Shown here: positions 1 to 46,650 of the stretch, piece by piece
How the letters are laid out: each line of letters begins with the position of its first letter
Position numbering within the stretch: position 1 is the stretch's first letter
NCBI GenBank assembly: GCA_963803535.1
Contig: CAWDNC010000009.1
Coordinates: 140,571-204,570, forward strand
Direction: 5' to 3'
Length of the DNA stretch: 64,000 bases
From: an uncultured cyanobacterium
GTDB taxonomy: Bacteria; Cyanobacteriota; Cyanobacteriia; Phormidesmidales; Phormidesmidaceae
Translations under genes and position numbers: made by a program
Notes under the pieces: model-generated
What the model was told of the DNA's origin: nothing
Database searches by the model: none
Seen by the model: only the letters and a program-made list of their open reading frames with translations

Positions 1-3000
1 TGGAAAATTGGGAACCTACGCCTCCAGCAAATAGACTCGCAGGATGAACAGATTTCCCAGAAAACGTCAAAAGAAACGTTAAAAAAGACATTAGAAGAGA
101 ACATTTTTGAAATCGTCAATCCGTTAAACCGAGGCAAAGCACTGGCCACAACGGACGCTGAGCGCTATTTGATGGCGGATTTGAACTGGCAGGCAGGCCG
201 CAAAGCCAAAGCCGCCAACGCTTATGAGAGCGCGCTAAGCTACTTTGATACGGGCGTTTCACTACTGCCCGATGAAGCTTGGCAAACGCACTATGAGCGC
301 ACGTTTGCACTCTATCGAGACGTTTCTGAATGTGCCTATCTCTGCGGTCAGTTTGAGCGAGCAGAGCAGCTATTTGAACAGGCGATCGCCCAGGCAGCTT
401 CCGCCATCGATCAGGCAACCATTCAGCTAATCCGTATCGTCCTATACGACAATCAGGGCAAGTTTACTGAAAACCTAAGCGTTGGCGGCGAAGCCTTACG
501 AAACTTGGGCCTGAGCTGGCCAAATACCGCCGATGACACGGCCGCTATTCTTGAGAAAGAACAGATTGTCTATCAGCAGCAGCTCGCAGAACATTCCGAT
601 ATTTCTCGCCTAGTAGAACAGCCCGAGATGACGGACGTAACCGCTCGCACCTGTATGCAGCTACTGGTGAGTATGACAGGGCCTGCGTACTTTACAGACC
701 CCACCCTAGTTACGCTAATCACGTTAAAAATGTCTGTTTTATCCATGCAGTATGGCAGCTCACAGTGGGCCGCGCAGGGATATGTATTTTGGGGAGCAAT
801 GCTCTCAGCAGCTTATCAAGACTACAAAACAGCCTATGCCTTTGGGAAAGTGGGTCTACAGCTCACCGAACGCTACAACAACTACAACGAATCCAAAACG
901 CTGAACTCTTATGTTGGATTTATTAGCCACTGGCACGTTCCACTAGAAAAAGACATTCCCCTGTTGCGCAGAGGCTACTTAGCAGGCGTCGAGATTGGCG
1001 ATGTTTTTACCGGCTATGTAGCACACGTGCTGTCGCTACACCTTATTTTAATGGGCGCAGAACTCAGTGAGATTCAAGCTGAGGTCAGTCTTCTATCAGC
1101 CTATCTTCACAAGAGTCAAAATCAAGTTTTTGCTCAGCAGATGCAGGCCTACCTTTACTGCATTTCGGCCTACCAAACCGGTACATTTTCTCATAAAAAA
1201 GGGAGTCTAAGAGACTTTGACGAAGCCCGCTGTCAGCAGCTTTTCCAGGACAATCAGTATTTTACGGGCGTTGCAACCCTGCTATTGCTCAAAGTCGTCT
1301 ATCACTTTTTGTTCGAGCAATACGAGAAAGCGCTGGCGCTGTGTGAGGAGAATGAACAGTTCATTGTGTTTGTAGCTGGACTAGCCGCCGAATCAGAGCA
1401 TGTCTTCTACCATTCTTTGGTACTCACGGCGCTATACGACACCGCCAGCATCTCGCAGCAGCGCACCTACTGGGCCATTCTAGAAAAGCATCTCATTCGG
1501 CTGCAAGGCTGGGCCAAAAGCTGCGCAGCAAACTACCAGCATAAATATCTGCTGGTGGCCGCTGAAATGGCGCGGTTGTCTCATCAGCCTAGCGATGCGC
1601 TGGACTATTACGACCAGGCAATCACCTCAGCGCAGACGTATGGCTTTATTCAGAACATGGCGATCGCGAACGAAAAAACCGCTCAGTTCTGGCGCTCTAG
1701 AGGCAACAACAATGTGGCTATCACCTATGCCAGATCGGCTTACCATGCCTACAAACAGTGGGGCTCTACGGCCAAGGCTAATGCAATCGCCGCGCACTAT
1801 CCAGGGTTGCTAGTCACTAGCACGCCCCGTACCATCTCATCGGATAACAATCGTCTTAGCAGTGCTAATCAAACAACCTTGTCAGCCAGCGAAGGCGAAG
1901 AGAACCGACTGGATCTGGCAACCGTGATGAAAGCTTCTCAGGCGATCGCCAGCGAAATTCGCTTAGAAGGCCTCCTGCAAACGCTCATGCAAATTGTGAT
2001 AGAAAATGCCGGAGCCCAAACCGGCGTTTTGCTACTGCGCCCAGAAGGCATCTCAGATCCCGATCGCCCCTGGGTGGTTGAAGCGCTTAGCAATCACGAG
2101 GGCAACATTCTGACGCAACAGGTGCAGTCCATCGAGATATCGAAGGTGATGCCCGTTGCGATTATGAACTACGTGGCCAGAACACAAGAAGCGGTCGTGC
2201 TGGCCAATAGTCTTACGTCCGATACATTCTCCCCCGATCCTTACATCACCCAGCACCAGCCAAAATCCATTCTCTGTATGCCCATTGGCTACCGGGGCCA
2301 GCTTATCGGCCTGCTGTACCTCGAAAATAACTTAACCACCGGAGCCTTCACGCCCGAAAGGCTAGAAGTGTTGAGTCTGCTCTCTGCTCAGACGGCTATT
2401 TCGCTGACCAACGCTAGGCTGTACGAACAGATGCGATCGCTCAACAGCAATCTGCAACAGGAAGTAGCCCGTCGGCAAGCCAGCGAAACTATCCTTAGAG
2501 ACAATGAGCAGCGCCTCACTCAGCTCCTAGAAGGTATTCCAGTTGGGGTATTTGTTGTAGACGCGCAGGGCCAGCCTTACTATGCCAACCAGGTTGCCCA
2601 GCAAATCTTAGGCAAGGGGCTCTATCCCCAAGTCGCTCAAAATAATCTCACCGAAATCTACCAGGCCTATCAAGCAGGGACATCTCGCCTGTACCCAACC
2701 AATCAGCTGCCTATTGTCCAAGCGCTGCGTGGCGAAAGCGTTACCGTTGACGATATGGAAGTGCATCAGGGCGATCGCATCATCCCTTTAGAAGTCTCTT
2801 CTACCCCTGTATTCAACGCCAAAGGAGACATCACCTACGCTATCACCGCCTTTCAAGACATTACCCTGCGCAAACAAGCCGAACAACAGCGCACTCGAAT
2901 TTACCCGCACGCTAGAGCAAAAGGTACAAAACCGCACCCAGGAACTATCTCAAACGCTGGCGGTGCTCAAAGCTACTCAGGCAGAACTTGTCATTGAAAA

Positions 3001-4129
3001 TGCCTTACTCAGAACAGACGAAGCAGATGCTACCTACGACTATCAGGTCGGTGGATCGCTCGCGACAGACGCACCCACCTACGTTGTGCGTCAGGCCGAT
3101 CGCCAGCTCTATAAGGCACTTCGGCACCAGCAATACTGCTACATTTTCAACGCCAGACAAATGGGCAAGTCGAGTTTGCGCGTACAGATGATGAAGCGCA
3201 TGCAAACCGAGGGCGCTGCGTGCGTGGCAATCGATCTCTCTGTCATTGGCAATCGCCAAACCACTCAAGAGCAATGGTATGCAGGCTTCATGTACGTCTT
3301 GGCCAGCGGCCTAAGCCTGAGTCAAGCGGTAGATATCCGAGCCTGGTGGAAAGATCACATGCTGTTATCCCCGCTTCAGCGGCTAGACGAATTTGTTCGT
3401 CAAGTGATTCTTGCTAAGGTCTCTAAAAACATTGTTGTATTTATCGATGAAGTCGATAGCGTTATGGGTCTCGACTTTGAGGCCGATGATTTCTTTATCT
3501 GGCTGCGCACCTGTTTCAACCAGCGTGCCGATGATTCTAGCTATCAGCGACTCACCTTTGTTCTATTAGGCGTAGCTACCCCCTCTCAGCTCATTCAAGA
3601 TGCTCATCGAACCCCGTTTAACATTGGCCAAGCCATAGAACTTAAAGGCTTTCAGCTTCATGAGGCACATCCACTTTTACAAGGATTGCCTGAAACCGTG
3701 GCTCGACCTCAAAGCGTACTTGCCGAAGTGCTTGCTTGGACAGGAGGGCAGCCGTTTTTGTCACAGAAAATTTGTCAGATGATTCGACATTCAAAGCAGC
3801 CGATTGCAGAAGGAGAAGAGCGCGCGTGTGTGGAGGAGTTGGTGCGATCGCGAATTATTAATAATTGGGAAACTAAAGACGATCCAGAGCATTTGAAGAC
3901 GATACGCGATCGCCTACTCAGCTACCCCGCCCAAACCAAAGCCATGCTATCTCTCTACCAACAGCTCCTATCAGACATGCCAGTCCCCGTTGACGATAGC
4001 CCTGAACAAACTGAACTACGCCTATCCGGACTAGTTGCTCGGCAGCCTAATCAGCTAAGTATCGCCAATCGTATCTACGCAATGGTTTTTAATCAGCACT
4101 GGGTGACTCAAACCTTACAGTTACTGTAA
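1..4129 (+). CDS. Large signalling protein, 5'-truncated by the window: helical/TPR-like region + GAF + PAS + coiled coil + C-terminal AAA_35-type NTPase; split by an apparent +1 frameshift near 2897
   Basis: Frame 1 is open from base 1 (WKIGNL...EENIFEIVN...AGRKAKAANAY, like the post-AAA region of cyanobacterial Ser/Thr kinase-AAA-GAF hybrids). GAF motifs (KASQAIASEI...LYLENN...F) and PAS (GVFVVDAQGQPYYAN). Removing one C in 'actcgaattt' gives EFTRTLEQKVQNRTQELSQTLAVLKATQAEL, joining ORF 2963-4129, which has Walker A RQMGKSS and Walker B VVFIDEVD. Confidence 0.8.
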
Positions 4130-15265: not shown

Positions 15266-15507
15266 AAGAGTCTCCAGAGTTAAGGGTCTAAGTACCTTTA
15301 GAGCTTTGCTGTTACAGCAGCTGTAAAGGGTGTATCAGAGCAGCGAGATATATAGACAGTAGCGCACACAGTAGCACGCTATGTTTTGAGCTATTGTTTC
15401 ACGCTTGACTGAAATTGTAAGACCTTAGTTGAACTTCTATATTATACTCATAACGACTTCGCTTTAGAGGAAATATTTTAGAAGGATGTGGCTGCTGGTA
15501 GAGCTTG

Positions 15508-15513
15508 TATAAT
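15508..15513 (+). promoter_or_regulatory. Perfect -10 hexamer 7 bp before the ATG, suggesting a leaderless MNT-HEPN transcript
   Basis: TATAAT at 15508-15513, ATG at 15521, no Shine-Dalgarno in between. Confidence 0.5.
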
Positions 15514-15520
15514 TCTGGCT

Positions 15521-16426
15521 ATGAAAGCTTCTCACACTGAACAAGCTATCTCTGAAGAACTTCGGCCTTATGTTGAGCGTCGGCAACGGGTTAAGGCTGA
15601 GGGGCGATCGCGTCTAAAAAAGCGCCACCAGTCTGGCCTAAAACAAGCAAAAGAACTCGCTGACGTTCTCAAAACAGACTTTGGCGTAACCAAAGTCGTC
15701 CTGTTCGGCTCCATGCTTTCGGTCAACAATACTCACATGAGTTCAGATATTGACCTAGCCGTATGGGATTTGCCGTCAAAAGACTATCTAGAGGCTCTGA
15801 GTGCTCTAGTAGATAGATCTAAAGCGTTTCGCGTTGATTTAGTGCGCATTGAAGAAGCTTCAGACAGTCTGATGTCTTATATCGCGCGGGCAGGCCTAAT
15901 ACTGGGCGCGAGCATTCCTGAAAGCGATATGTTGACGAGAGACAACCCCTCTATGCCAAACTACACAGCCTTAGCAGGCCGCATCCATCGGGAACTGAAA
16001 GATATAGATGTCCAATATATACAGACACGCGGTCAGCTAGAAACGGCTAGAGAAACCGATCAAGTTGCTTACTGGATGGCTGTAAGCCTTGGCTTGCACG
16101 GAATCTATACCGGGCTAGAGAAAATATTTGAGCAAATCGCTCGCGATGCAGACGGGTATATCGATAAAAAGTCTGATCGCTGGCATAAGGATTTGTTAGA
16201 GCAGATGACGGCTACTATGCCGAATATTCGCCCCGCTGTCATTGATGAAAAAACGTTCCGCGCTCTGGAACAATATTTAGCCTTTCGCCATGTTGTTCGG
16301 AGCAGCTACGCCTACAGACTTGAGCCCAAAAGGATCGATGAAAACTTTCAGATCCTTGAGAATTGCTACGACTCTCTGGTTAAGCAGCTCAACGCGTTCT
16401 GCAATTTTTTACTCTCTGTTAGTTAA
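15521..16426 (+). CDS. Fused minimal nucleotidyltransferase (MNT) + HEPN/HepT-like RNase domain protein
   Basis: N-half has VVLFGS-x11-DIDLAV; C-half (from Met at 15953) has LHGIYTGLEKIFEQIA...WHKDLLEQM...FRHVVRSSY; one uninterrupted frame. Confidence 0.82.
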   Translation: MKASHTEQAISEELRPYVERRQRVKAEGRSRLKKRHQSGLKQAKELADVLKTDFGVTKVVLFGSMLSVNNTHMSSDIDLAVWDLPSKDYLEALSALVDRSKAFRVDLVRIEEASDSLMSYIARAGLILGASIPESDMLTRDNPSMPNYTALAGRIHRELKDIDVQYIQTRGQLETARETDQVAYWMAVSLGLHGIYTGLEKIFEQIARDADGYIDKKSDRWHKDLLEQMTATMPNIRPAVIDEKTFRALEQYLAFRHVVRSSYAYRLEPKRIDENFQILENCYDSLVKQLNAFCNFLLSVS

Positions 16427-20772: not shown

Positions 20773-23232
20773 CTAGACGCTCGCCATCGCCTTAGCAGCT
20801 TGCATTTTGCTGAAGGCTCTAACCGGTCGCTTAATCTCTAACGATTCAATATCAATCGCCTCGCCTGCTGCAACGGCTTCGTTGATAGCTGCGATCGCCT
20901 CCAGTTCAGCCTCAGCCTGCTCTCTTTCCGCCCTATCTAGCTCAGCGGCCATAGGAGAGAGCCCCAAGTCCTTAATCACCCAGTCAATGGCCTGGTCTGC
21001 AAACAGATTAACGCTGTCTATGGGTAGGGTAATCGGCGCAATCTCGGTCGGCTCATTTTCCTGGTTCGAGCGCGACTCGGCTGCGATGTCCAAGTCCGGG
21101 GTGTTCAAGAACATCTCATGCAAATCACGAGACATCATTTCAATGCTCAAGCTATCCTCTAAAGAATCAACGGTCAGCTCAGCAGGGGCCTCTGTTAGTC
21201 GAACAGACTGCCCGGTTATCTCTTGCAGTTCAGCCAATATGCGCTGTTCAAAGGCATCAGTACTTTCTTGCTCTCTAGCGCGTTCCGCCTGCCCTTCTCC
21301 AGCCAAGATTTCTTCCAGGCTAAGCGGCCGAGTGAATGGAATCGTTGTAGGGACTTCGGCTTCACTATCAGCTTGAGTACGGTCTATTTGAAGATCGTCT
21401 AGTTGAAGATCATCTATTTGAGGCTTGTCTAGTTGAGAGAGGTCTACCTGAGCACTGGCTATTGGAGAATGACCCAGCTGGGAACGGTTCACAGCCGTAT
21501 GGTTCACAGCCGTAATCACATCCATGGGCTTTACTTCCAACGGACTAACAGACAGCTGGCCGATGCTTGAAAAACCTAGCGTAGAAGCAGTGGCGTTCAG
21601 TTCTAGAAGCTTGTTAATAGAGAGATATTGAGTGGGCTGAATGATTGATGGCCCAGTAGCTGCGAGCTGTAAGTCTGGTGCCAGCGCGCTGGCGAGGCCT
21701 GCATTTTTGAAACGCGCCTTGTGCAGGTCGCCATTTTGAAAGCCTGACTTTTGCAGGTTGGGATCATGAAAGCGGTCAGGCTGTAGGTTCAGCGTGGGGA
21801 CAAAGGCGCGCTGTTTGGAGCGGCGGTAGGCAGAAATTGTGGCGATCGCCCCTGCCGCTAGCACCGTGTAAATAATGGCCTGAGCGCTAGAATCTTTGGG
21901 AAGCTGAGGCGCCAGCTTTTTCGCCCGGGCCATTACCAAATCACTGCCCGCCTCCTGTCGCGGTAAAGGCTGCTTATCAACAATTGCCTGACGCTCGGCC
22001 TCATACTGACTCACCATCTGTAGTGCCGTCTGCTCTGCCCGCTGAAGCTGCTCGTATTCTCCAACGTTTCCAGCCAGCTGACTTTGGCGAGTTTTGAGCT
22101 TTTGCTCAATGTTGGCAATGGTCTCCTGGCGCAGCAGCTGCACTTGCTGATCGTGAGTGGCCGTCACCAGGCTTTGCACAACGTTGAGTGAGTCTGGCAC
22201 GCGCTGAATAAAGCTAGGAATGACCGTGTTAGGGTTCATCAAGTATGCGCCCAGCACTTCGGTGGCCACGCCTTGCAGCGCCTGCTGGTTGTACTCGTAG
22301 TCATCGTAAATTTCGTTGAGCGCCGTCGCGTCAATTTTGGCTCGACTGAATTCTTCCAGCAGATTTTGCTCGGTGAGCTTCAGCTTCTCCCACTTAGCCT
22401 GGTACTCCGAACTTTGGTCTAAGGCTCTTTGTGCTAAGCCAACCTCAGCATCCATGCTAGCTAGCTGCTGCTTAAGGTTGCCAACACGCTGCTGCGTTTG
22501 TTCAATCGTGATCGCCAGCTTACTTTTCTGCTGAATAATTTCCGTCAGGCGATCGGCGAGCACCTGCTGGTAGGCCGTCATATTCTGCTGCGCGTGCGCG
22601 GCCTCAAAATCTCGTAGTTTGGCCTGAGCAGCCTTCACCTGCTGCCGTGCCTTTGGCAGCTGCCTATCGATGTAGTCAATGCCTGTACAGCGACTGCCTG
22701 AGCACTGACTAGCTGTTTGGCCAGCTGCTTGATCCGTTTTTGGGCTGTTTTTTGGGCTAGCTTCCTGAGTCAGGTTTCTAAGCGTCGACTGCGTTTCAGC
22801 TGACTGGCCGGCACTGCCGGCTGGAGCCGATAGTGTCCAGCTGCCATCGTCTGCCTGCTTTATGAGGGGCGCCGATTCGCTTTGAGTGCTAGCAGCAGCG
22901 TTGCTAGCAGGGCTAAAATTCGCCTGAGCGACCGGAGAAGTTTGGGCTAAGACGGCACGGCCCTGACTGATCGCATCGGTAACGGTGCTTTTATTGGTCT
23001 GCGCGGTTTGTGCGGGTGAAATTGTCTCAGCAGGAGCGGGTTGATAGGCGATCGCGGGCTCTGCGACCAGCGGTAGGACGACGCCTGCGGCTGCACTGGT
23101 AATAGTTCCAGCCTGCACCCAGCCATGCTTTATAGCCCAGTGCTTAGCACTATCCGATAGAGGCGATCGCGCTTCCAAACGGTGACTTACTTTCAATCCA
23201 TCCATTACTCTGGCGTCTTTGGGAGGCTGCAT
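20773..23232 (-). CDS. Membrane-anchored protein with a GumC/Wzc-like coiled-coil region and long acidic tail, no kinase domain
   Basis: N-terminal hydrophobic segment, 'IDYIDRQLPKARQQVKAAQAKLRDFE' resembles GumC periplasmic helices, one TM (AIIYTVLAAGAIATISAY), D/E-rich C-terminus. Confidence 0.6.
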   Translation of the reverse strand: MQPPKDARVMDGLKVSHRLEARSPLSDSAKHWAIKHGWVQAGTITSAAAGVVLPLVAEPAIAYQPAPAETISPAQTAQTNKSTVTDAISQGRAVLAQTSPVAQANFSPASNAAASTQSESAPLIKQADDGSWTLSAPAGSAGQSAETQSTLRNLTQEASPKNSPKTDQAAGQTASQCSGSRCTGIDYIDRQLPKARQQVKAAQAKLRDFEAAHAQQNMTAYQQVLADRLTEIIQQKSKLAITIEQTQQRVGNLKQQLASMDAEVGLAQRALDQSSEYQAKWEKLKLTEQNLLEEFSRAKIDATALNEIYDDYEYNQQALQGVATEVLGAYLMNPNTVIPSFIQRVPDSLNVVQSLVTATHDQQVQLLRQETIANIEQKLKTRQSQLAGNVGEYEQLQRAEQTALQMVSQYEAERQAIVDKQPLPRQEAGSDLVMARAKKLAPQLPKDSSAQAIIYTVLAAGAIATISAYRRSKQRAFVPTLNLQPDRFHDPNLQKSGFQNGDLHKARFKNAGLASALAPDLQLAATGPSIIQPTQYLSINKLLELNATASTLGFSSIGQLSVSPLEVKPMDVITAVNHTAVNRSQLGHSPIASAQVDLSQLDKPQIDDLQLDDLQIDRTQADSEAEVPTTIPFTRPLSLEEILAGEGQAERAREQESTDAFEQRILAELQEITGQSVRLTEAPAELTVDSLEDSLSIEMMSRDLHEMFLNTPDLDIAAESRSNQENEPTEIAPITLPIDSVNLFADQAIDWVIKDLGLSPMAAELDRAEREQAEAELEAIAAINEAVAAGEAIDIESLEIKRPVRAFSKMQAAKAMASV

Positions 23233-23486
23233 GTAGACCTGCTGGGATGTGAGAACAAGCAGTTGTGTCAATAAAAAAAACACTTTTTCTTACCCCTCTA
23301 TACAAGAACTGAACGCGGCCCTCCGGGTGATAGCCTGTACGTGTACTAGAACGAGCTTTGCACCTAGAGCTTTGCACCTAGACCTACGGTGCCCAAAGCG
23401 ACAAAACAAATAAACTTGTTTTAACTCTATTTTCTATAGACCTTCTCGAATCGTTCTGTGAGACCCGCGCTGCTAGCACTTTGAAA

Positions 23487-28845: not shown

Positions 28846-29763
28846 CTATAGAGACTTTAGCCATTGATCTAAATCGCCTAAGTCTTTGAGATCAAATATC
28901 GCTTCACCGAGTGCCTCTAAGCTCGCAGTAGGTAGCTCAAACACAGACTTCTGAAGCGTGCTTGAAAGGGTTCCAAAGCGCTTCGTTAGCATCCTATTAA
29001 TAAGGTTTGCCGCTTCTTCTCGACGGCCCTGCTCAATGCCTTGCTCAATGCCTTGCTCAATGCCCTGCTCAATGCCCTTAACAAGACCTTGCTCAAGACC
29101 TTTTTTTTCTGCGGCTTCTTTGACTTCTTGATAAACCCGCGTCTCTTCAAAGGTAATATCTAGCATCGCCTCTACCTCTTTTGTACTTAGCTGTTTGAAC
29201 TTGTATGAGATGATCGTGGTGACCATTTCTATGATGGCACGACTTTCAGATTGATGAACTTCTCGCTCTGATCTCTCAATGATGTAGCGAGCCTCCGACG
29301 GGGCCTGTTTTTCCTTCACCGTTGTGAGCATCATAAGTGCGACCCAGATAGGTTGGCTTCTGATGTTGCCTAGCTGGTCAAGAAAAATGCGATGTGTCTG
29401 CCCGTTATTTAGTAAGCTGCGATGAGGATACAGCTTGTTTTGCTCAGTGCTTCGCGATGGGTAGATAACGACCACCTGCCAGTCACTGAACTTTTCACAG
29501 TTACGGTAAAAGTATAGTGCTGTTTCGGCAAAGATTCTTTCGTAAAGCTTTTCATCTTTTTGAAACTGAACTTCAACAAAGAAAACGGGGTCTATACTAC
29601 CTTCTGGTGGGAGCAGTACGCCGTCAATCTCAAATTTTGGCTCTTTGACAGCTACCGAATCAAAGCGGTAGCGATCTGCGTTGTCAGGGATCGTAGGAAC
29701 CAGTTCAAATAAAAGAGTTGGTGACTGCCTAAACAGCTTGTAGAAAATAGTATCTCGCTTCAT
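28846..29763 (-). CDS. DUF2887/Rpn-type PD-(D/E)XK nuclease-like protein with C-terminal DUF4351-like region
   Basis: MKRDTIFYKLF, Y.F.SVAVKE..F.IDG, FVEVQFQKD; (GIEQ)n 12-bp repeats at about 29027-29077. Confidence 0.85.
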   Translation of the reverse strand: MKRDTIFYKLFRQSPTLLFELVPTIPDNADRYRFDSVAVKEPKFEIDGVLLPPEGSIDPVFFVEVQFQKDEKLYERIFAETALYFYRNCEKFSDWQVVVIYPSRSTEQNKLYPHRSLLNNGQTHRIFLDQLGNIRSQPIWVALMMLTTVKEKQAPSEARYIIERSEREVHQSESRAIIEMVTTIISYKFKQLSTKEVEAMLDITFEETRVYQEVKEAAEKKGLEQGLVKGIEQGIEQGIEQGIEQGRREEAANLINRMLTKRFGTLSSTLQKSVFELPTASLEALGEAIFDLKDLGDLDQWLKSL

Positions 29764-32461: not shown

Positions 32462-35400
32462 TCAACTTCTCAAGTCTTTAATTACATACAACAGCTCGTT
32501 ATTGTATGTGTCCCCATTGCTAAGGTCTCGATAGTGCACGCGCTCTATCTCATCCGGAATTTCGCACGCCGAAATCAGCACCGGAACAATCTTTTTCTCT
32601 ACCATCCGCGCCATTTCTAGCTCCCACTCCACATAAGTCGAGGCAACGGCACCGGGCGTTAGCAGCACAACAACCGCATTCACTTCACGTAAAGCCTTTC
32701 GCAGCTGTGCTTTCCACTCTTTGCCGCCCTCCATATCCGTAATGTCTTGCCACACCGAAAATCCGGCAGCGCCCACTTCATCTCGAAACCGTTTTGCGGC
32801 TGCGGTTCCATCAGCGCGAGCGTACGAGAGAAAGATGTTCTTTTTTGACTCAGGAACAGTGACATCAGCTAAAATCTTTTCTCGCTGAACAGCGGGCGGC
32901 TGTGTGTAATAGCCTTTAAATTGCTTGTCTATTTGGCCATAGCCGCGCCCACCTTCTTCTATGTCATAGCGGGCAGCTCGGTCGCTAACATCACTCATCA
33001 AGCGGCGAACATCTACTTTTTTATAGCTTTTTCGGCAGTCAATATCGTACTGATGATCGCCAATATATTTCATCAGCAAATCGTAAGGATAAGACTCTGG
33101 CTGGGCGCTGTCTTTGCACTGCTCGCAGTTGCAGGGAATTAGCTCGTCGTATTGTAAGCGCTCGTAGGATTCGTGAATTTTCCAAAGCTCGTGACGGACG
33201 TTTTCGAGTAGGGGCTTTTTGTTGCTACCACTGACGCGGACGTTGATTTCATTTTTGGGATAGTTTTCAATTACCTGAGCGCGCGCCCATTTGTCAGATA
33301 GGACAACGCCATTTTTCCAAACGTGGTTTTGATCTTCTATCAGCGAATGCGTTTCTACGATGAAGCGGGTGAGAATGCCTTTTGGCATGAAGTCGTAGCG
33401 GTAGCGAATGATGAGATTGTTGCTATCTTCCCAAGGAAAGTCGGGCTTGCTGATAGGGAGGAGTTGAGGCGCGATGTATTGGCCTTGTTGTCCGGGGATT
33501 TCGTAGGCGAGCTTGAAGCGCATCATCAGCTGAAGAAGTTCATCGCGTAGCTCCGAGTACTGGCTGTCGCTCCAGATATTTTCAGTGTCTTGCTCGGTGA
33601 AGCGGCCTTTGCTGTTGCGGACGATATCGCTGTCGGCAACTTTGTAGACGGCGGCGGTGGCCCATTCGGGACTGAGGATGACCGTGCGTTTTAGAATTTT
33701 GTCGTCTTGGAAGTGGAGGCATACGCCGAGATCGTGAAGATAGCTGCTGAGGGACAGCATCTGTTGTTTGTCGGCAAAGCCGTTTTGGCGGCAGATATCG
33801 AAGTATTGATCTACGGTGATGGTGTTGCAGTTTTGGGCGTAGTTTTCTAGGGCGGCGCGGACGCGAACCCAGATTTTAGGCAGCGGCTGGCCGACGTGGG
33901 GAAGTTTGCTGATGTGGTAGCGGATGGCGTCTTTGATGTCGTTGAGGCCGCGATTATCTTTTAGGTTGGTGGGCAGGTAGTCTTTGAGGTTGTTGAACTG
34001 GCTTTTAAATTGGCCTTCGTCAATTTCGCATTGGCGGTTTTGCTTTTCGTTTTTGATCACTAACACGGGGCTGCTGTCGCTGAGGAGTTCGACTATTTTT
34101 AGCCAGTAGTAGAAGTCGGTATTTTCCTGGCGGGTGTCGGCAACTAGAAGATATAGGGAGCGTTTGGTGAGGAAGAACTGGTGTGTGGCGTGATAGATTT
34201 CTTGTCCGCCAAAGTCCCAAATGTTGACGCGGAAGGTGTTGCCGTCAGATAGCGGGAAGTCCCAGCGGATTACGTCAATGCCTTCGGTTGAGGCTTCGTC
34301 CTCGGGTAGCTCGTAGGCTTCGTCATCAATTTTCTTAGCTAGGGACGTTTTGCCTGCACCGCCTTCGCCTACAAGAATAAGCTTTGCTTCGTACAGAGGT
34401 GTAGAGCCTTGTTCTGCTTGTAGTGAAAAGTAAAAGCCTAGTGTTTCTATTGCAGGGCTAGGCTTTTCGTAGCTTTCTTTTGGCCCTAATATTTCTGGTG
34501 GAATAGGTAATGGGTTCCCGCGCATGTCTAGCGTCTCTAATCTTTCTAGCGATTTAGCCCAGATTGGTAAGGTGCTGAGCTGATTGCCACTGAGGTTGAG
34601 CGTTTGCAGGTTCGTTAGCTGTCCGATGACCTCGGGCAAGGTGCTGAGCTGATTGAAACTGAGGGAGAGCGATTGCAGGTTCGTTAGCTGACCGGTTATC
34701 TCGGGCAAGGTGCTGAGCTGATTGCTCATGAGGGAGAGCGATTGCAGGTTCGTTAGCTGACCGATTACCTCGGGCAAGGTGCTGAGCTGATTGCTCCTGA
34801 GGGAGAGCGATTGCAGGTTCGTTAGCTGACTGGTTACCTCGGGCAAGGTGCTGAGCTGATTGCTTATGAGGTCGAGCGATTGCAGGTTCGTTAGCTGACC
34901 GATTACCTCGGGCAAGGTGCTGAGCTGATTGCTCATGAGGTAGAGCGATTGCAGGTTCGTTAGCTGACCGATTACCTCGGGCAAGGTGCTGAGCTGATTG
35001 TCACTGAGGTAGAGCGATTGCAGGTTCGTTAGCTGACCGATTACCTCGGGCAAGGTGCTGAGCTGATTGCTCATGAGGTCGAGCGATTGCAAGTTCGTTA
35101 GCTGACCGATTACCTCGGGCAAGGTGCTGAGCTGATTGCTCATGAGGTCGAGCGATTGCAGGTTCGTTAGCTGACCGATTATCTCGGGCAAGGTGCTGAG
35201 CTGATTGCTCATGAGGTCGAGCGATTGCAGGTTCGTTAGCTGACCGATTACCTCGGGCAAGGTGCTGAGCTGATTGCTCCTGAGGTCGAGCGATTGCAGG
35301 TTCGTTAGCTGACCGATGACCTCGGGCAAGGTGCTGAGCTGATTGCTCATGAGGTCGAGCGATTGCAGGTTCGTTAGCTGACCGATTACCTCGGGCAAGG

Positions 35401-35656
35401 TGCTGAGCTGATTGCTCCTGAGGGAGAGCGATTGCAGGTTCGTTAGCTGACCAAGTTCACGGGGCAACGCTGTTAAGTTGTTGCCAATAATTTTCGACTG
35501 CTTACGATCAATTTTTCCTAGTACGAGTGTCTCTAACTTTGTCAGTCTTCCAATTTCTGGCGGTAGCTCATCCAGCTTCATACCGGCCAAATCTAGCGTC
35601 GTTCGTTCGTCTGCTGCTGCCTCATCAATCAGTCTAAGCAATTCTTCTTGAGTCAC
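32462..35656 (-). CDS. LRR-Roc-COR-TIR protein (Roco GTPase with C-terminal TIR_2 domain)
   Basis: About 15 LRRs; Roc P-loop GEGGAGKTSL, switch STEGID and WDFGGQE; COR region; CNCEQC motif; TIR 'IFLSYAR...VW.D...G.EW...S.YVEWEL' with the conserved Glu. Confidence 0.93.
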   Translation of the reverse strand: MTQEELLRLIDEAAADERTTLDLAGMKLDELPPEIGRLTKLETLVLGKIDRKQSKIIGNNLTALPRELGQLTNLQSLSLRSNQLSTLPEVIGQLTNLQSLDLMSNQLSTLPEVIGQLTNLQSLDLRSNQLSTLPEVIGQLTNLQSLDLMSNQLSTLPEIIGQLTNLQSLDLMSNQLSTLPEVIGQLTNLQSLDLMSNQLSTLPEVIGQLTNLQSLYLSDNQLSTLPEVIGQLTNLQSLYLMSNQLSTLPEVIGQLTNLQSLDLISNQLSTLPEVTSQLTNLQSLSLRSNQLSTLPEVIGQLTNLQSLSLMSNQLSTLPEITGQLTNLQSLSLSFNQLSTLPEVIGQLTNLQTLNLSGNQLSTLPIWAKSLERLETLDMRGNPLPIPPEILGPKESYEKPSPAIETLGFYFSLQAEQGSTPLYEAKLILVGEGGAGKTSLAKKIDDEAYELPEDEASTEGIDVIRWDFPLSDGNTFRVNIWDFGGQEIYHATHQFFLTKRSLYLLVADTRQENTDFYYWLKIVELLSDSSPVLVIKNEKQNRQCEIDEGQFKSQFNNLKDYLPTNLKDNRGLNDIKDAIRYHISKLPHVGQPLPKIWVRVRAALENYAQNCNTITVDQYFDICRQNGFADKQQMLSLSSYLHDLGVCLHFQDDKILKRTVILSPEWATAAVYKVADSDIVRNSKGRFTEQDTENIWSDSQYSELRDELLQLMMRFKLAYEIPGQQGQYIAPQLLPISKPDFPWEDSNNLIIRYRYDFMPKGILTRFIVETHSLIEDQNHVWKNGVVLSDKWARAQVIENYPKNEINVRVSGSNKKPLLENVRHELWKIHESYERLQYDELIPCNCEQCKDSAQPESYPYDLLMKYIGDHQYDIDCRKSYKKVDVRRLMSDVSDRAARYDIEEGGRGYGQIDKQFKGYYTQPPAVQREKILADVTVPESKKNIFLSYARADGTAAAKRFRDEVGAAGFSVWQDITDMEGGKEWKAQLRKALREVNAVVVLLTPGAVASTYVEWELEMARMVEKKIVPVLISACEIPDEIERVHYRDLSNGDTYNNELLYVIKDLRS
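34571..35452 (-). repeat. Tandem array of 13 near-identical 69-bp LRR-coding units
   Basis: Unit core (+ strand) ggtgctgagctgattg...gagcgattgcaggttcgttagctgaccga..acctcgggcaa recurs every 69 bp. Confidence 0.97.
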
Positions 35657-35672
35657 CTTTTTCTGCCACTAT

Positions 35673-35868
35673 TGCTGTTGACAGCATACCGCAGTCAATC
35701 AGCTGTATTGCGAGGGTTATCGTGACAATTGCGTCGAAAATACTATTGCAAGGCTACTAAATACAACAATATTCAGTCAATACTGTTTTTCATAAAACGA
35801 GCTCACTACGCATTTGTGAGGATTTCATGTCAAATAATTGACAGCACCGATACCGTAGCGCTACGCTA
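35673..35868. promoter_or_regulatory. Palindrome-rich divergent intergenic region between the TIR gene and the small ORF
   Basis: TTGAC-N11-GTCAA (35678-35698), TGTCAA-N4-TTGACA (35828-35843), direct repeat TTGACAGCA at 35678 and 35838. Confidence 0.45.
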
Positions 35869-35988: not shown

Positions 35989-36063
35989 AGCCCGGTCAGC
36001 GGGTTGTGTCAATGATGACACAGCCACCCTGACTCTTGGCAAGTTGAGGGTGGCTATTTTTTT
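35989..36063 (+). promoter_or_regulatory. Attenuator-like structured leader: three overlapping hairpins, the last followed by T7
   Basis: agcccg/cgggtt (35989-36005), ggttgtgtca/tgacacagcc (36002-36025), agccaccct/agggtggct (36022-36055), then TTTTTTT (36057-36063); AGGAG at 36088. Confidence 0.6.
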
Positions 36064-36098: not shown

Positions 36099-36422
36099 AT
36101 GAAATCCACTAACCCATTGACTGGCCTATCTTCCACAGGTCAGCCACAGCACCCAATGCCCACAAAAATACCACCCGAACAAGCCATCGCCGCCCACCTG
36201 CGCCCGCTGCCCCAGTTCGCCCCCTCCGGCACCCCACCCAAAAAATCCATCCGCCACATCCTGCTAGGCGAACCCGAGGCCATTCGCCAAACCATCCACC
36301 TACTCCACACCCTCCACTACACCGAAACCATCCTATGGACGCCTGTTTTATCCATTGAGGAGCCACTGATAATTGCGCCCGCTCAAAGCGAAGCCATTAG
36401 TCTGTTGCGAAAGCAATTGTGA
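36099..36422 (+). CDS. Small cyanobacterial hypothetical protein (RHILLG.P.A...TIH.LH.L.Y...W-type)
   Basis: SD AGGAG before the ATG; the C-terminal 60 aa resemble a family of uncharacterised small cyanobacterial proteins (recalled, not searched). Confidence 0.7.
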   Translation: MKSTNPLTGLSSTGQPQHPMPTKIPPEQAIAAHLRPLPQFAPSGTPPKKSIRHILLGEPEAIRQTIHLLHTLHYTETILWTPVLSIEEPLIIAPAQSEAISLLRKQL

Positions 36423-37250: not shown

Positions 37251-37418
37251 AGATAAATTTAGAGTGTGAGGTTAACTCTTTTATCAATACTGAATCTGTT
37301 CGGCGGATAGTCTCTTCCTAAAGGCAAGGCTTGCTGAATGTTATCGCCAGCGGTATAGATGGCATCGTTCTCTCTTTTGCTATCTATTCCCTTTGTCAGA
37401 ACTGAATACCGAAAAAAG

Positions 37419-37811
37419 CTAGGCCAAAATTCGCCATACGATAACGCCAACGCCGATGATTGAACCAAAGTAAGCTAGCGATCGCACCAAACTAATCCCC
37501 GCATAATACGCCGCCCCATGCAGCACCCGGCACACCAAAATCGCGATCGACGCCTTTGCCGTCACATCATCTGCCTGCCCCGTCACCGCCGCCGTCAAAA
37601 TCACCACCGCAATCATCGCCAAATTATCATGATGGTTCCGCTGCGCCCGATCCGCTCTACCCACCCACGGCGCACCATCTACCGCCTTCTCACGATTGCT
37701 CGCGGCCCACTCAATGCCCGCATCCGCCACTCTACCGAAGGCCGGAATATGGTTCAGCGGAATTGACCACAGCGCCAGTGCCAGCAAGCAAAACAAATCA
37801 GTCGTCATCAC
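37419..37811 (-). CDS. MAPEG family membrane protein
   Basis: NRE...W.GRA.RAQRNH.DNL, CRVLHG..Y. Confidence 0.85.
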   Translation of the reverse strand: MMTTDLFCLLALALWSIPLNHIPAFGRVADAGIEWAASNREKAVDGAPWVGRADRAQRNHHDNLAMIAVVILTAAVTGQADDVTAKASIAILVCRVLHGAAYYAGISLVRSLAYFGSIIGVGVIVWRILA

Positions 37812-37889
37812 AAGTTCCTTTACAACGCATCATCTGGGGCGCGATCGCGAATAAGATCGCTCATAAGCCCCTTCTTATCATCACCTGCA

Positions 37890-40427
37890 ATGGACGCTGC
37901 CGCGCGCGCAAATTGGCTACAGACCCACACGATTTTTCGCGATTTGCCTAATGACTTGGTGAACGCGATCGCCCCTTGCCTCACCACCGTTCCCTTCGCC
38001 GCCAACCGCCGCCTCATTCTCGAAGACACCGAGCCCGACGCCCTCTACATTCTCAAATCTGGACGATTAGAAAGCTACCGAACCCGCAAAAATAGCGCCG
38101 CGCAGGTCACTGAGCTAGAGCCTGGTTACGTTTTACACTTGCGATCGCTCCTCCTCAACGAACCCACCAGCCAAACGCTGGTCTCCCTCACAGACTGCAC
38201 CCTCTGGCGATTAGACAAAGGCAGATTTCAAGAACTTGCTGAAGAATTCTCAGAACTTAGCCAAGAACTCTCTCGCCTGCTCGCTAACGAACTTGAAGAA
38301 GTCTCCAAACAGCTCGCCCAAGAACAAGAGCGTCAGCTTGCACTTAGGCCTTACTTAGTGGCTCGGGTGAAGCGTGGCGTGGTCGGCGGCAGTCGGTACG
38401 CAATTCGGCTCAGAAAAGATATTCGTGAGGCGACAAAAGCCGAGCCCAAAAGTAGCAGGCGCGCGCCTATTCTCATATCAGGCGAACCTGGACTGGGTAA
38501 AGACAACCTCGCAGCGCTGATTCACTTTGGCTCCAGCAACAAAGCTAAGCCAATGATTCAGGTGAACTGCGAGCGGCTGAGAGCCCAAGATCTGTTTGGC
38601 AAAGGAGATCAGCCTGGATTGTTGGACTGGCTCGCTGATGGCACGCTGCTGTTGAACAATGTGCAAGATTTAGACGAGGCGCTGAAAAAGCCGATTGTAC
38701 AGCTGATAGAAACCGGGCAATATCAGCCGGTTTCTCGTGAAGGTGACGCGCCGTTGCCTCTGAGAACATCGCGAGCCTGGGTTTTGATGGTGGCTGAAAA
38801 TGCGGTGCCTGATATTAGGCGATGCGATCGCATCAAGCAAATCAAAGTACCGCCTCTGCGCGTGAGAAAAGCGGACATAGAAACGCAGGTAAATCTACTT
38901 TGCACAGCTGCTGTGTCGTGAGCAGGGACTGTGCAAAAAGAAGCTGGAGACCGAAGCGCTGCGGCGACTGCAAAGCTATGACTTTCCCGGTAACATTACT
39001 GAATTAGAAAATATGGTGGAGCGGGCGGTGGGTCAGTCGGGCGATCGCACTACCCTCACCGAAGATGTTTTCTGGGCCGCTGAAAAACAAAGCCGTCGCT
39101 TTCGCTTCAATCTCCTTCAGGGCTATCCCAAGCTCAAAAAGTTTCTCCTCAGCCCGTGGTGGCCCGATCAGGATCAACTACGGCTTCACGCTCTGGTTCT
39201 ACCCGATCGTTGTTGCCATTTTGATGTGGGGGCCACAAACGCGCGATCAAAACTTCGCCCTAAACTTCTTCTGGGCCTGGTGGTGGCCGCTCATTCTCCT
39301 CAGCTTTCCGTTTGTCGGCAGGCTGTGGTGCGCCGTTTGCCCCTTTATGATCTACGGCGAAGTCGCGCAGTTTCTCTCACTCAAAATATGGCCCAGAAAG
39401 CTACGAGGCTGGCCCCGCGCGTGGGCCGAACGCTGGGGCGGCTGGATTTTATACGGCGGCTTCGCGCTCATTCTGTTGTGGGAAGAGCTGTGGAATTTAG
39501 AAAATACCGCCTATCTCTCCGGCTGGCTACTGCTGATTATTACCGCTGGAGCCGTGATTTGTTCTGTTCTGTTTGAAAGAAGATTCTGGTGCCGCTATCT
39601 CTGTCCTATTGGCGGCATGAACGGCCTGTTTGCCAAGCTTTCTATGGTAGAGCTGCGGGCACAGCAAGGCATCTGTTCGGCTAGCTGCAACACCTACCAC
39701 TGCTACAAAGGCGGGCCTGCTGAAGGCGTTGGCCAAGCGACAAATGGCTGTCCTATTTACTCACATCCCGCGCAGCTTACGGACAATCGCAACTGCGTGC
39801 TGTGTATGACCTGTGCCAAGGCCTGCCCCCATCAGTCAGTAGAGCTAAACCTGCGCCCGCCGGGAATAGAGCTGTGGACGACGCACAAAGGAACCAGCTA
39901 TGAAGTGGCTCTGTTGTTGTTGCTGTTGGGCGCGGTGTTTTTGCATCGACTGCCGCAGTTGACAACTTTGGTATTGGGAGATGCGAGCGTGTTAGATGGA
40001 TTTTGGGGACATGCGATCGCCTCAATCATTGCTTTGTTTTTACCGAGTGCGATCGCCCTTTTTGCCGATCAGCTACGGCTTCAAATCCAAGGCACAGGCG
40101 CTAAACGCACCTTCATAGAGCTTGCCTACGGTTACCTCCCCCTTCTACTATTTGCCAGCCTCGCCCACTACCTACTGCTTAGGTCTCACCGAAGCCGGAC
40201 AGATCATCCCCGTGATGGAAACCACACTAGGCCTTTCCATTACGGATATTAGTTTCGTCGCGCATCCTGCCGTGATCGCATTCTTACAGGGCACAGCGTT
40301 ATTACTGGGCACGCTACTCAGCATCGTACTTACTCAAAAAATTGCTCGTCAACCTTGGCCAAAGCTAATGCCACAGCACAGCCTCACACTAGGCTTAACG
40401 GTCGCGCTTTGGCAGCTCATCGTTTGA
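37890..40427 (+). CDS. cNMP-binding + degenerate sigma54-activator-like AAA+ + membrane polyferredoxin (4Fe-4S) protein; three apparent +1 frameshifts (about 38896, 39169, 40181)
   Basis: cNMP-binding N-terminus, GEPGLGKD, YDFPGNITELENMVERAV, CAVCP, WCRYLCPIG, C..C..C.KACP; each junction is repaired by deleting one base. Confidence 0.82.
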
Positions 40428-45489: not shown

Positions 45490-46650
45490 TTAGATAATGC
45501 TGAACTGAGCGGATGGCAGTGTGGTTATATCTGCATTGGCCAGGGCTATAGTCGCATCGCTATCAAAGACATCATCGCTGCTAAACAAAGCAGAAGCGTC
45601 CGAACCTAAGCTGTTCTCGTAAGCATAGGTCACAATAAAATCGAGCTTTCCATCGCCATCGTTATCGCGTGTCTCGCTGATGAAACTGCCAGCGGCGTCG
45701 TAAGCGAACCTAGTGATGCCATCAGGCGTACCATCGGCATTGCGATCAACAAAGACGCCAGTAATTTGGTCAGCTTCGTTGTAGGTATAGGTTGTCAAGC
45801 TATCAGGCGTACCGTCTGCATTGCTGTCGATAGATTCGCCGGTAAAATTGCCGTTGCTATCGTAAGTATAGGCAGTAGCGTAGTCTAAGATGCCGTCTGC
45901 ATTGTCGTCTGTGGTTGTCCCAATGATGCTTCCGTCTGCATTGTACGTATAGGTATAGATGGTTTCAATTTTTCCATCTGCGTCGCTGTCTACCGAGAGA
46001 GTTCTGGTAAGGCTCTCAGCGGCGTCATAGATATACTCGGACGCTGCGAGGTAATTAGGCACGCCGTCTTGGTCATAGTCTATAGACAAGCTGGTTTCAA
46101 GGCCAGATGCGTTGTAGGCATATGTGCTGAGAGTCGATACTTCGGGTGTACCATCTCTATTAAAATCAAAAGTATTAAATAGGGTGTTGAGGCTGCCAGC
46201 AGAGTCGTAGGTGTAGGTCGTTGTCTGAGTGGGTATACCTCCAGAGAAGCCTGTTGAGTAAGCGGCAACCTTTCCGGCTTCGTTGTAGGTTAGCAAGTAG
46301 ATGGGTTGGTCGGATATACCGTCACTGTTGGTATCGACAGATTGACCCGTTACGTTGCCTGACTCATCGTAAGTGTAAAGTATTGTGATACCGCCAGATT
46401 GATTTTGAGCGATTAGATTGCCGACTTCATCATAGGTATAAGTAATACTAAAACTAAAGCCAGGAACGTCTCCACCGGAGAAGGCTGCATTCTGGAAGGT
46501 AACTCTGTCCGCTGTATCGTAGGCGTAAGTTACTACAATGTTATCGATTCCATTTCCATCTGTATCTACGTTGGCTTGCTTTAAGAGAGGCTTTGAAACG
46601 ACGGATGTGCTAGGGATCAAGGCAGTAGACGTAGCTGTTGAAGCTGACAT
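45490..46650 (-). CDS. YD-like repeat protein with DxDxDG calcium-binding-like loops
   Basis: Repeats of D.N/D.DG..D....Y.Y[DN]..G (e.g. DSNADGTPDSLTTYTYNEAD). Confidence 0.75.
   Translation of the reverse strand: MSASTATSTALIPSTSVVSKPLLKQANVDTDGNGIDNIVVTYAYDTADRVTFQNAAFSGGDVPGFSFSITYTYDEVGNLIAQNQSGGITILYTYDESGNVTGQSVDTNSDGISDQPIYLLTYNEAGKVAAYSTGFSGGIPTQTTTYTYDSAGSLNTLFNTFDFNRDGTPEVSTLSTYAYNASGLETSLSIDYDQDGVPNYLAASEYIYDAAESLTRTLSVDSDADGKIETIYTYTYNADGSIIGTTTDDNADGILDYATAYTYDSNGNFTGESIDSNADGTPDSLTTYTYNEADQITGVFVDRNADGTPDGITRFAYDAAGSFISETRDNDGDGKLDFIVTYAYENSLGSDASALFSSDDVFDSDATIALANADITTLPSAQFSII

Follow-up and report, generated by a model that had tools for sequence, protein, structure and literature searches.

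The LRR–Roc–COR–effector proteins of bacteria, prokaryotic relatives of LRRK2 and DAPK, are predicted to be immune sensors. Among the prokaryotic ROCO or AP-GTPase–COR conflict proteins, the N-terminal leucine-rich repeats (LRRs) have been described as "rapidly evolving", and the C-terminal effectors as variable (Kaur, Iyer, Burroughs, Aravind, eLife 2021, PMC8195603). This study concerns a gene of this kind on the minus strand of a stretch of 64,000 nucleotides from an uncultured cyanobacterium of the Phormidesmidaceae (GenBank assembly GCA_963803535.1, contig CAWDNC010000009.1, positions 140,571 to 204,570 of the forward strand; the whole stretch is called the window below). Its LRR region contains an array of 13 nearly identical 69-bp units. 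The gene has the same LRR–Roc–COR order and the same C-terminal effector slot as the prokaryotic ROCO conflict proteins, the slot being occupied here by a TIR domain; the published account makes no mention of homogenisation of the units at the DNA level or of variable codons inside the units (PMC8195603). The structural prototype of the family, the Roco protein of C. tepidum (CtRoco; PDB 6HLU, 3DPU and 8R4B), has no TIR domain.

The array probably encodes the LRR solenoid by which a cytoplasmic cyanobacterial ROCO protein senses its ligand. This protein would be a sensor similar to the NLRs (nucleotide-binding, leucine-rich repeat receptors), with a homogenised scaffold and a diversified surface. 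The gene is a clean example of an already published architecture and of an already published regime of repeat-homogenised receptors, and it offers no new mechanism or principle. The novelty implied by an initial annotation of the window, which had been made from the sequence alone, was thus overstated, since earlier work had described this regime both in repeat-homogenised receptor genes and in ROCO LRRs.

Repeats with high internal conservation (HIC) are a hallmark of the fungal NWD/HET-E receptors, have been reported for the WD and TPR repeats of bacterial NLRs and have been surveyed across life (PMC4986451; 10.1101/2020.01.06.895854; PMC13449251). According to the same reports, the units of these repeats (HET-E/NWD WD40, ANK and TPR) are 80–90% identical or more and contain a few positively selected surface positions; close relatives differ by gain, loss and shuffling of repeats, for which unequal crossing-over or gene conversion has been proposed. 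The 2020 survey found that prokaryotic NLRs are typically without LRRs (bioRxiv 10.1101/2020.01.06.895854). Compared with the HIC NLR-like receptors, the window gene has a Roc-COR module instead of a NACHT or NB-ARC domain, its repeats are LRRs and its effector is C-terminal rather than N-terminal. Polymorphism in repeat number or order was observed in other members of the ROCO-TIR family; the searched collections contained no relative of the window gene with a similar array. The HIC repeats of the fungal HET-E/NWD receptors are reportedly also the subject of Paoletti 2007.

Concerning ROCO proteins of eukaryotes, the brown-algal ROCO genes encode 23-aa LRR units with positive selection at x3, x5, x7 and x8 of the concave face, and shuffling of the LRR exons of these LRR-ROC-COR genes has been proposed to create receptor diversity (Teng 2024, PMC11378527). 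In brown algae, every unit has a 72-bp exon of its own, alternative splicing adds to the diversity and no TIR domain is present, whereas the window gene is contiguous bacterial coding DNA. The shuffled LRR exons of the brown-algal genes are also said to be treated in Zambounis 2012. In the lamprey variable lymphocyte receptors (VLRs) and in plant NLRs, specificity is set by variable residues on the concave LRR beta-sheet. The VLRs arise by somatic assembly from donor cassettes that flank the gene, in a deaminase-linked process resembling gene conversion, and the LRRs of plant NLRs are irregular and not homogenised. Unlike a VLR gene, the window gene is complete and intact, and no LRR cassettes were found elsewhere in the 64 kb. 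The Leptospira proteins LIC11098, LIC10831 and LIC12759 (PDB 4U08, 4U06 and 4U09) are built from the same regular 23-residue unit, but they stand alone, without Roc-COR or TIR.

The repeat array and its variable codons

Tandem Repeats Finder reported a single array at 34569-35452 (period 69, 12.8 copies, 94% matches, no indels), which in frame reads as 13 units of LTNLQSLxLxxNQLSTLPEVIGQ running from 35446 down to 34550 on the minus strand. The initial annotation had described 13 units of 69 bp with almost no synonymous divergence, and this description holds: the mean pairwise identity of the units is 0.85 for protein and, for units 1–12, 0.94 for DNA, and just three synonymous variants occur among units 1–12. 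The residues listed there for the x positions were also reproduced exactly for 13/13 units, namely, from unit 1 to unit 13, S-RS, D-MS, D-RS, D-MS, D-MS, D-MS, Y-SD, Y-MS, D-IS, S-RS, S-MS, S-SF and N-SG. In these identities the array agrees with the HIC type, in which the units of one protein are at least about 80% identical. Our analysis added that units 1 and 10 are identical, that the 3' half of unit 13 (34550-34618) is divergent and that codons 20-22 form a second, smaller cluster of variation. A 21-mer from the framework has 13 matches within the window, all of them in the array, where 0.01 would be expected by chance, and the LRRs flanking the array on both sides are very unlike its units.

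Variation among units 1–12 is limited to 12 of the 69 nucleotide positions. Six of these sites lie in codons 8, 10 and 11, which correspond to x5, x7 and x8 of LxxLxLxxN, a significant concentration (hypergeometric P=5e-4), and each of the six changes is non-synonymous; the others are five sites in codons 20-22 and one in codon 4. When minimal mutations were counted, 9/15 fell in codons 8, 10 and 11 (binomial P=2.6e-5). The variation is therefore concentrated, as had been claimed, and not evenly spread over the unit. The third base is fixed in codons 8 and 11, giving an NNC-like pattern.

The comparison of non-synonymous with synonymous change per position points in the same direction. In units 1–12, the proportion of non-synonymous differences (pN) was 0.332 at the variable codons, while the framework had a proportion of synonymous differences (pS) of 0.041 and a pN of 0.017. 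Counted as minimal events, 9 non-synonymous changes over 7.8 sites stand against 3 synonymous changes over 15.2 sites (rate ratio 5.8, P=0.0045). Non-synonymous change at codons 8, 10 and 11 thus runs at about 6–8 times the framework synonymous rate, and these codons are hypervariable positions in the sense used for HIC repeats. The pattern extends to the family, in which eight arrays of low divergence (that of the window and those of L004, L008, L013, L014, L018, L022 and L035) have a framework pS of at most 0.08; in all eight, pN at the variable codons is at least four times framework pS. In addition, pN at codons 8, 10 and 11 stays within 0.24-0.45 at framework synonymous divergences of 0 and of 0.8 alike. 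Since relaxed constraint alone is unable to give an excess of at least fourfold, the simplest explanation is diversifying selection at the surface positions, and the data point to its acting on a recently homogenised array. The diversity of the surface is either rebuilt very fast after homogenisation or spared by it.

A search with the Roc-COR-TIR part of the protein as query returned about 8000 relatives, nearly all of them cyanobacterial "COR domain-containing proteins". Among the best 120, 80 relatives carry at least six units in strict 23-residue register, with a median unit-to-unit identity of 0.74, and the unit consensus LTNLQSLxLxxNQLSSLPxEIxQ is common to several genera. Entropy within the arrays is highest at positions 8, 10 and 11 (1.7-1.9 bits), followed by positions 6, 22 and 19. 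At the DNA level, the synonymous divergence between the units of family arrays ranges from saturated to almost nil. The framework nucleotide distance is 0.06 inside the window array vs. 0.24-0.45 to the arrays of other genes, and the nearest neighbour of 13/13 window units is another window unit. The same framework residues are written in gene-specific codons, in a "dialect" of each gene. The small distance within the gene and the large distance between genes indicate that the units were homogenised or re-amplified in each gene long after the genes diverged. These data demonstrate that the window array was homogenised at the DNA level independently of its relatives, that is, by concerted evolution. 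The units at the array edges have escaped homogenisation, and their divergence would fit homogenisation by misaligned exchange.

The array singles out the presumed ligand-contact residues, three per repeat on a fixed scaffold, and the gene is a handy starting point for finding the ligands of bacterial ROCO sensors and a candidate for experiments. It also bears on whether a Roc-COR GTPase could replace the STAND (signal transduction ATPases with numerous domains) ATPase of NLRs and on whether receptors across life generally evolve by repeat homogenisation together with diversifying selection.

Domain architecture and predicted mechanism

The gene and its parts are located in the window as follows, with the sources of each assignment in brackets.

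32462..35656, minus strand: LRR–Roc–COR-A–COR-B–TIR gene of the ROCO family, 1064 aa (open reading frame list, translation, Pfam, family alignment)
35447..35656, minus strand: N-terminal cap helix and two divergent LRRs, one with an insertion, aa 1-70 (translation, secondary structure of the AlphaFold2 model)
34550..35446, minus strand: array of 13 x 69-bp units encoding 23-aa LRRs, aa 71-369 (Tandem Repeats Finder, in-frame reading)
34481..34549, minus strand: C-terminal capping LRR LERLETLDMRGNPLPIPPEILG, conserved family-wide (translation, family alignment)
33938..34384, minus strand: Roc GTPase domain, aa 425-573 (Pfam PF08477 E=1.8e-24, PF00071; PDB matches; invariant columns)
33458..33880, minus strand: COR-A domain, aa 593-733 (Pfam PF16095 E=1.9e-46)
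32993..33421, minus strand: COR-B domain, aa 746-888 (Pfam PF25497 E=2.7e-41)
32501..32836, minus strand: C-terminal TIR domain (TIR_2), aa 941-1052 (Pfam PF13676 E=4.2e-21; NCBIfam, PADLOC and PDB matches)

The open reading frame (ORF) at 32462-35656 is the sole long one over the array, and it runs unbroken across the 13 units and through 1064 codons. Its start codon is GTG, and the N-terminus VTQEELLRLIDEAAA fits the consensus MTxEELLQIIEQAA of the family alignment. The two N-terminal LRRs (aa 1-70) are not homogenised with the array. In Pfam, LRRs span aa ~20-390 and Roc spans aa 425-537, and all domain matches are far over the cut-offs. The COR domain lies directly C-terminal to Roc, the arrangement by which ROCO proteins are recognised, and the gene is a true ROCO member. 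The closest solved sequences to the Roc-COR part in the PDB are M. barkeri Roco2, CtRoco and LRRK2.

The Roc domain has the P-loop GEGGAGKTS and the switch II motif DFGGQ. At the G4 site, where small GTPases carry NKxD, it reads KNEKQ (window 34039-34053, aa 535-539). As K535, N536, E537 and K538 are invariant in an alignment of 30 family members, KNEKQ is a trait of the family and not a lesion.

The TIR fold is recognised by PF13676 as well as by ThsB-like, TIR-SAVED and SARM1 matches, and TIR-SAVED (7QQK) and SARM1 are the closest solved sequences to this part in the PDB. The glutamates of the motif VEWELE align with E-V-E of TIR-SAVED 7QQK; we take the catalytic residue to be among them, and the domain is predicted to be an effector of the NADase type. 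NCBIfam and PADLOC recognise just the generic LRR and TIR parts of the protein. No signal sequence or membrane segment was detected in the translated protein, and Pfam identified no NACHT or NB-ARC STAND domain, the central module being Roc-COR. Being without a STAND ATPase, the protein is not an NLR in the strict sense, although it may well work like one.

An AlphaFold2 model of the protein (predicted local distance difference test score, pLDDT, 79 overall and >90 through the LRRs) has as its best fold match the C. tepidum LRR-Roc-COR crystal structure 6HLU, over 929 columns. For the LRR part of the model, the Leptospira 23-residue LRR proteins are closest, with TM-scores of 0.89-0.91 normalised to the target and 44-55% identity. 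In the model, positions 6-8 of each LRR unit form a strand and positions 19-23 a short helix. Codon 8 is thus part of the strand, codons 10 and 11 come just after it, and codons 20-22, with the minor cluster, belong to the helix. The initial annotation had placed the x residues on the concave beta-sheet surface of the solenoid; the model is consistent with this, as it predicts positions 8, 10 and 11 on or beside the strand.

Based on this architecture, the following mechanism may be proposed. Tandem units that pair out of register would undergo unequal crossing-over or gene conversion, which would homogenise the scaffold and change the number of units, and diversifying selection would retain point substitutions at the surface codons, so that specificity could shift over evolutionary time on a fixed scaffold. 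The concave face of the LRRs would bind an invader-derived or other non-self ligand, and ligand binding would alter the state of Roc-COR, acting as a switch and dimerisation module. The TIR domain would thereby be released, and NAD+ consumption or a signal would stop the infected cell from growing or kill it. The ligand, switch and TIR steps follow published predictions for the LRR–Roc–COR–effector architecture (PMC8195603).

Unit turnover and the nearest relatives

Relatives that are at least 90% identical differ in protein length by multiples of 23 aa, and the unit signatures of close relatives show clean insertions, deletions and duplicated blocks, including blocks of two units. For example, P0095, P0148 and P0149 contain 17, 13 and 18 units, respectively; the unit pair TDNS-FDKD is present as a single copy in P0059 and in three copies in P0124; and the pairs P0033/P0151, P0115/P0144 and P0104/P0138 each differ by a single unit. 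Of four related loci, which include two pairs with flanking synteny, L041 has three units more than L002, L008 and L031. Close relatives can also be unchanged in this region: the 30 residue differences between P0099 and P0158 all lie outside the array. Between P0071 and P0126, the array holds 21 of the 107 differences, which is no excess over its share of the length, and 12 of these 21 are at positions 8, 10 and 11. As some close pairs are unchanged in the array, turnover appears to be episodic rather than continuous, and the identity of the P0099 and P0158 arrays indicates occasional shuffling on an evolutionary scale rather than a standing diversification like the assembly of lamprey VLRs. 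In L018, L019, L020, L022 and L028, which are short-read assemblies of Aphanizomenon/Dolichospermum/Anabaena, the contig breaks off inside the array, at 84-408 nt upstream of the Roc match, and such breaks limit the comparison of repeat number between strains.

For the window array itself, no similar array was found in relatives by exact-protein look-up, in genome contigs, in metagenome contigs or by protein searches with the Roc-COR-TIR and LRR parts; the best match to the LRR part has 68% identity. Within the array, 12/66 site pairs fail the four-gamete test, including pairs of a synonymous site (nt 60) with the variable codons; we do not take these failures as proof of recombination, since a single mutation separates the alleles and there are few informative sites. 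Neighbouring units do not resemble each other more than distant ones do (permutation P=0.23), and the longest exact repeat is 103 bp at a two-unit offset. The alleles at codons 8 and 10 are all joined by single-base steps, and these codons are 4-8 nt apart, so units that look like mosaics of others are equally well explained by recurrent point change. The initial annotation had taken such mosaics as a sign that recombination reshuffles the units, for which they are weak evidence. Its wider claim of recombination stands in part: gain, loss and homogenisation of units are supported by the family indels and the framework distances, while no programmed process like that of the VLRs is indicated.

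The closest relative, L050 (ENA ERZ25039505 contig_6938, 1-3286; a contig of 3.3 kb), was compared with window 32462-35700. The two have their upstream sequence and N-terminus in common. DNA identity is 92% in Roc-COR and only 67.5% in the N-terminal 540 nt, and the LRR region is unrelated, consisting in L050 of three near-identical units and a divergent fourth, followed by about ten degenerate LRRs. The three near-identical units show no variation at codons 8, 10 and 11, and 27-29 of 69 nt separate the L050 units from the consensus of the window array. Identity changes abruptly at the LRR/Roc junction, which suggests the exchange of a whole module between related genes. L050 also contains an in-frame TGA and two frameshifts, which may mark a pseudogene or may be indel errors of long reads. 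In L006 (Cyanobacteria bacterium J06598_1), the upstream cNMP-binding/sigma-54-activator-like and Fer4 genes are syntenic with window 37409-40170 at 70-74% identity, the positional orthologue has few LRR units and no TIR, and downstream synteny is gone. The putative module exchange in L050 and the absence of TIR in L006 both fit birth-and-death evolution.

Alternative explanations and genomic surroundings

That the array is a homogenised and diversified ligand-sensing solenoid has to be weighed against several observations that speak against it. No experiment tying any bacterial ROCO-TIR protein to phage defence was found in the literature, and no system model of PADLOC-DB v2 matches the whole protein, the match being confined to the TIR region (aa ~916-1047). 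The gene is solitary among housekeeping genes, with no obvious defence island around it, and the non-canonical G4 motif makes the nucleotide specificity of Roc uncertain. The selection statistics for the window gene come from just 12 variable sites in one array. Part of the data on unit number derives from metagenome assemblies, which are prone to repeat collapse, so these data are good but imperfect. Finally, the arrays of the close pairs P0059/P0121 and P0115/P0143 are identical.

Several of these observations would suit an ordinary signalling or scaffold protein without an immune role, in which a recent tandem amplification was neutral and the x positions vary merely because they are the least constrained residues, as they are in all LRR proteins. 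The small number of variable sites gives the tests low power, the neighbourhood is one of housekeeping genes, and regular 23-aa LRR proteins exist outside the ROCO family, such as Leptospira LIC11098 among the fold matches. However, relaxed constraint is insufficient for a 6–8-fold excess over the framework synonymous rate, the same excess is present in seven further arrays of low divergence, and the TIR effector, the swapping or loss of effectors in relatives and the pseudogene-like L050 fit the birth and death of conflict genes; we therefore regard neutral amplification as unlikely. A failure of the assembly, in which the number or order of the units results from collapse, expansion or mis-joining of repeats, would be in keeping with the identity of units 1 and 10, with exact repeats of up to 103 bp and with the short-read orthologue contigs that stop inside their arrays, which are thus hard to assemble. 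Yet repeats of at most 103 bp can be ordered by 150-nt reads or by k-mers above 103, the frame is intact over 13 units and 1064 codons, and comparable arrays are present in complete chromosomes, e.g., those of Leptolyngbya BL-A-14 and Nostoc commune NIES-4072, which makes an artefact very improbable.

If the array is real and under selection, its diversity might still be generated on a shorter time scale. Programmed or high-frequency recombination would reshuffle the units within a culture or a filament population, so that cells carry different receptors, as with lamprey VLRs or phase-variable repeats. The failed four-gamete pairs, including those with the synonymous nt 60, the 103-bp repeat at a two-unit offset, which suggests a block duplication, the unit indels between relatives at least 90% identical and the variable-codon pN of 0.24-0.45 even in arrays almost without synonymous divergence could all be read in this way. 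Against it, neither donor cassettes nor other copies of the units were found in the 64 kb, no recombinase, deaminase or reverse transcriptase adjoins the gene, the alleles of the variable codons are all reachable by single-base steps, and the identical arrays of P0099/P0158, P0059/P0121 and P0115/P0143 show turnover to be slow relative to strain divergence; we consider such a programme improbable. To a related idea, namely that ROCO-TIR arrays are actively diversified in vegetative cells by frequent conversion within the array or by site-focused mutagenesis within filaments, we give a similarly small chance. It is suggested by a variable-codon pN that lies near a plateau (0.24-0.45) while framework pS is at most 0.08 in eight independent genes. 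If it were true, the filaments would hold a receptor repertoire at the population level, a prokaryotic counterpart of the somatically diversified LRR receptors. Hypermutation by a diversity-generating retroelement (DGR) or a similar template-driven system would likewise confine variation to a few codons, and the fixed third base of codons 8 and 11 could be seen in this light. The target here is a tandem LRR array and not a C-type-lectin or Ig-type variable region, no reverse transcriptase was identified in 40 scanned ORFs, including the 34 longest, no template repeat was found in the 64 kb, and the substitutions involve all bases instead of being adenine-specific. The initial annotation was thus right to set the DGR aside, and its probability is negligible.

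The surroundings of the ROCO gene are those of an ordinary cyanobacterial chromosome, with zwf/opcA, fbp, gatB, malQ and feoB. The Rfam scan of the window gave no matches, and the promoter and terminator scan around the gene yielded nothing over the shuffled expectation. In the intergenic region upstream of the gene, a hairpin resembling a terminator (GCCACCC-N18-GGGTGGC, then seven T) is present on the plus strand at 36023-36063. It stands 35 nt upstream of a 107-aa ORF at 36099 and has no Rfam match, and no obvious plus-strand gene ends there.

Elsewhere in the window, an 836-aa ORF at 20773-23283 on the minus strand is without any Pfam match, and an ORF at 28846-29763 on the minus strand carries DUF2887 and DUF4351. 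At 15488-16426, a single ORF joins a nucleotidyltransferase (Polbeta/NTP_transf_2) to a HepT-like domain, so that an MNT-HepT toxin-antitoxin pair forms one polypeptide. A 386-aa ORF at 45490-46650 on the minus strand contains RHS repeats.

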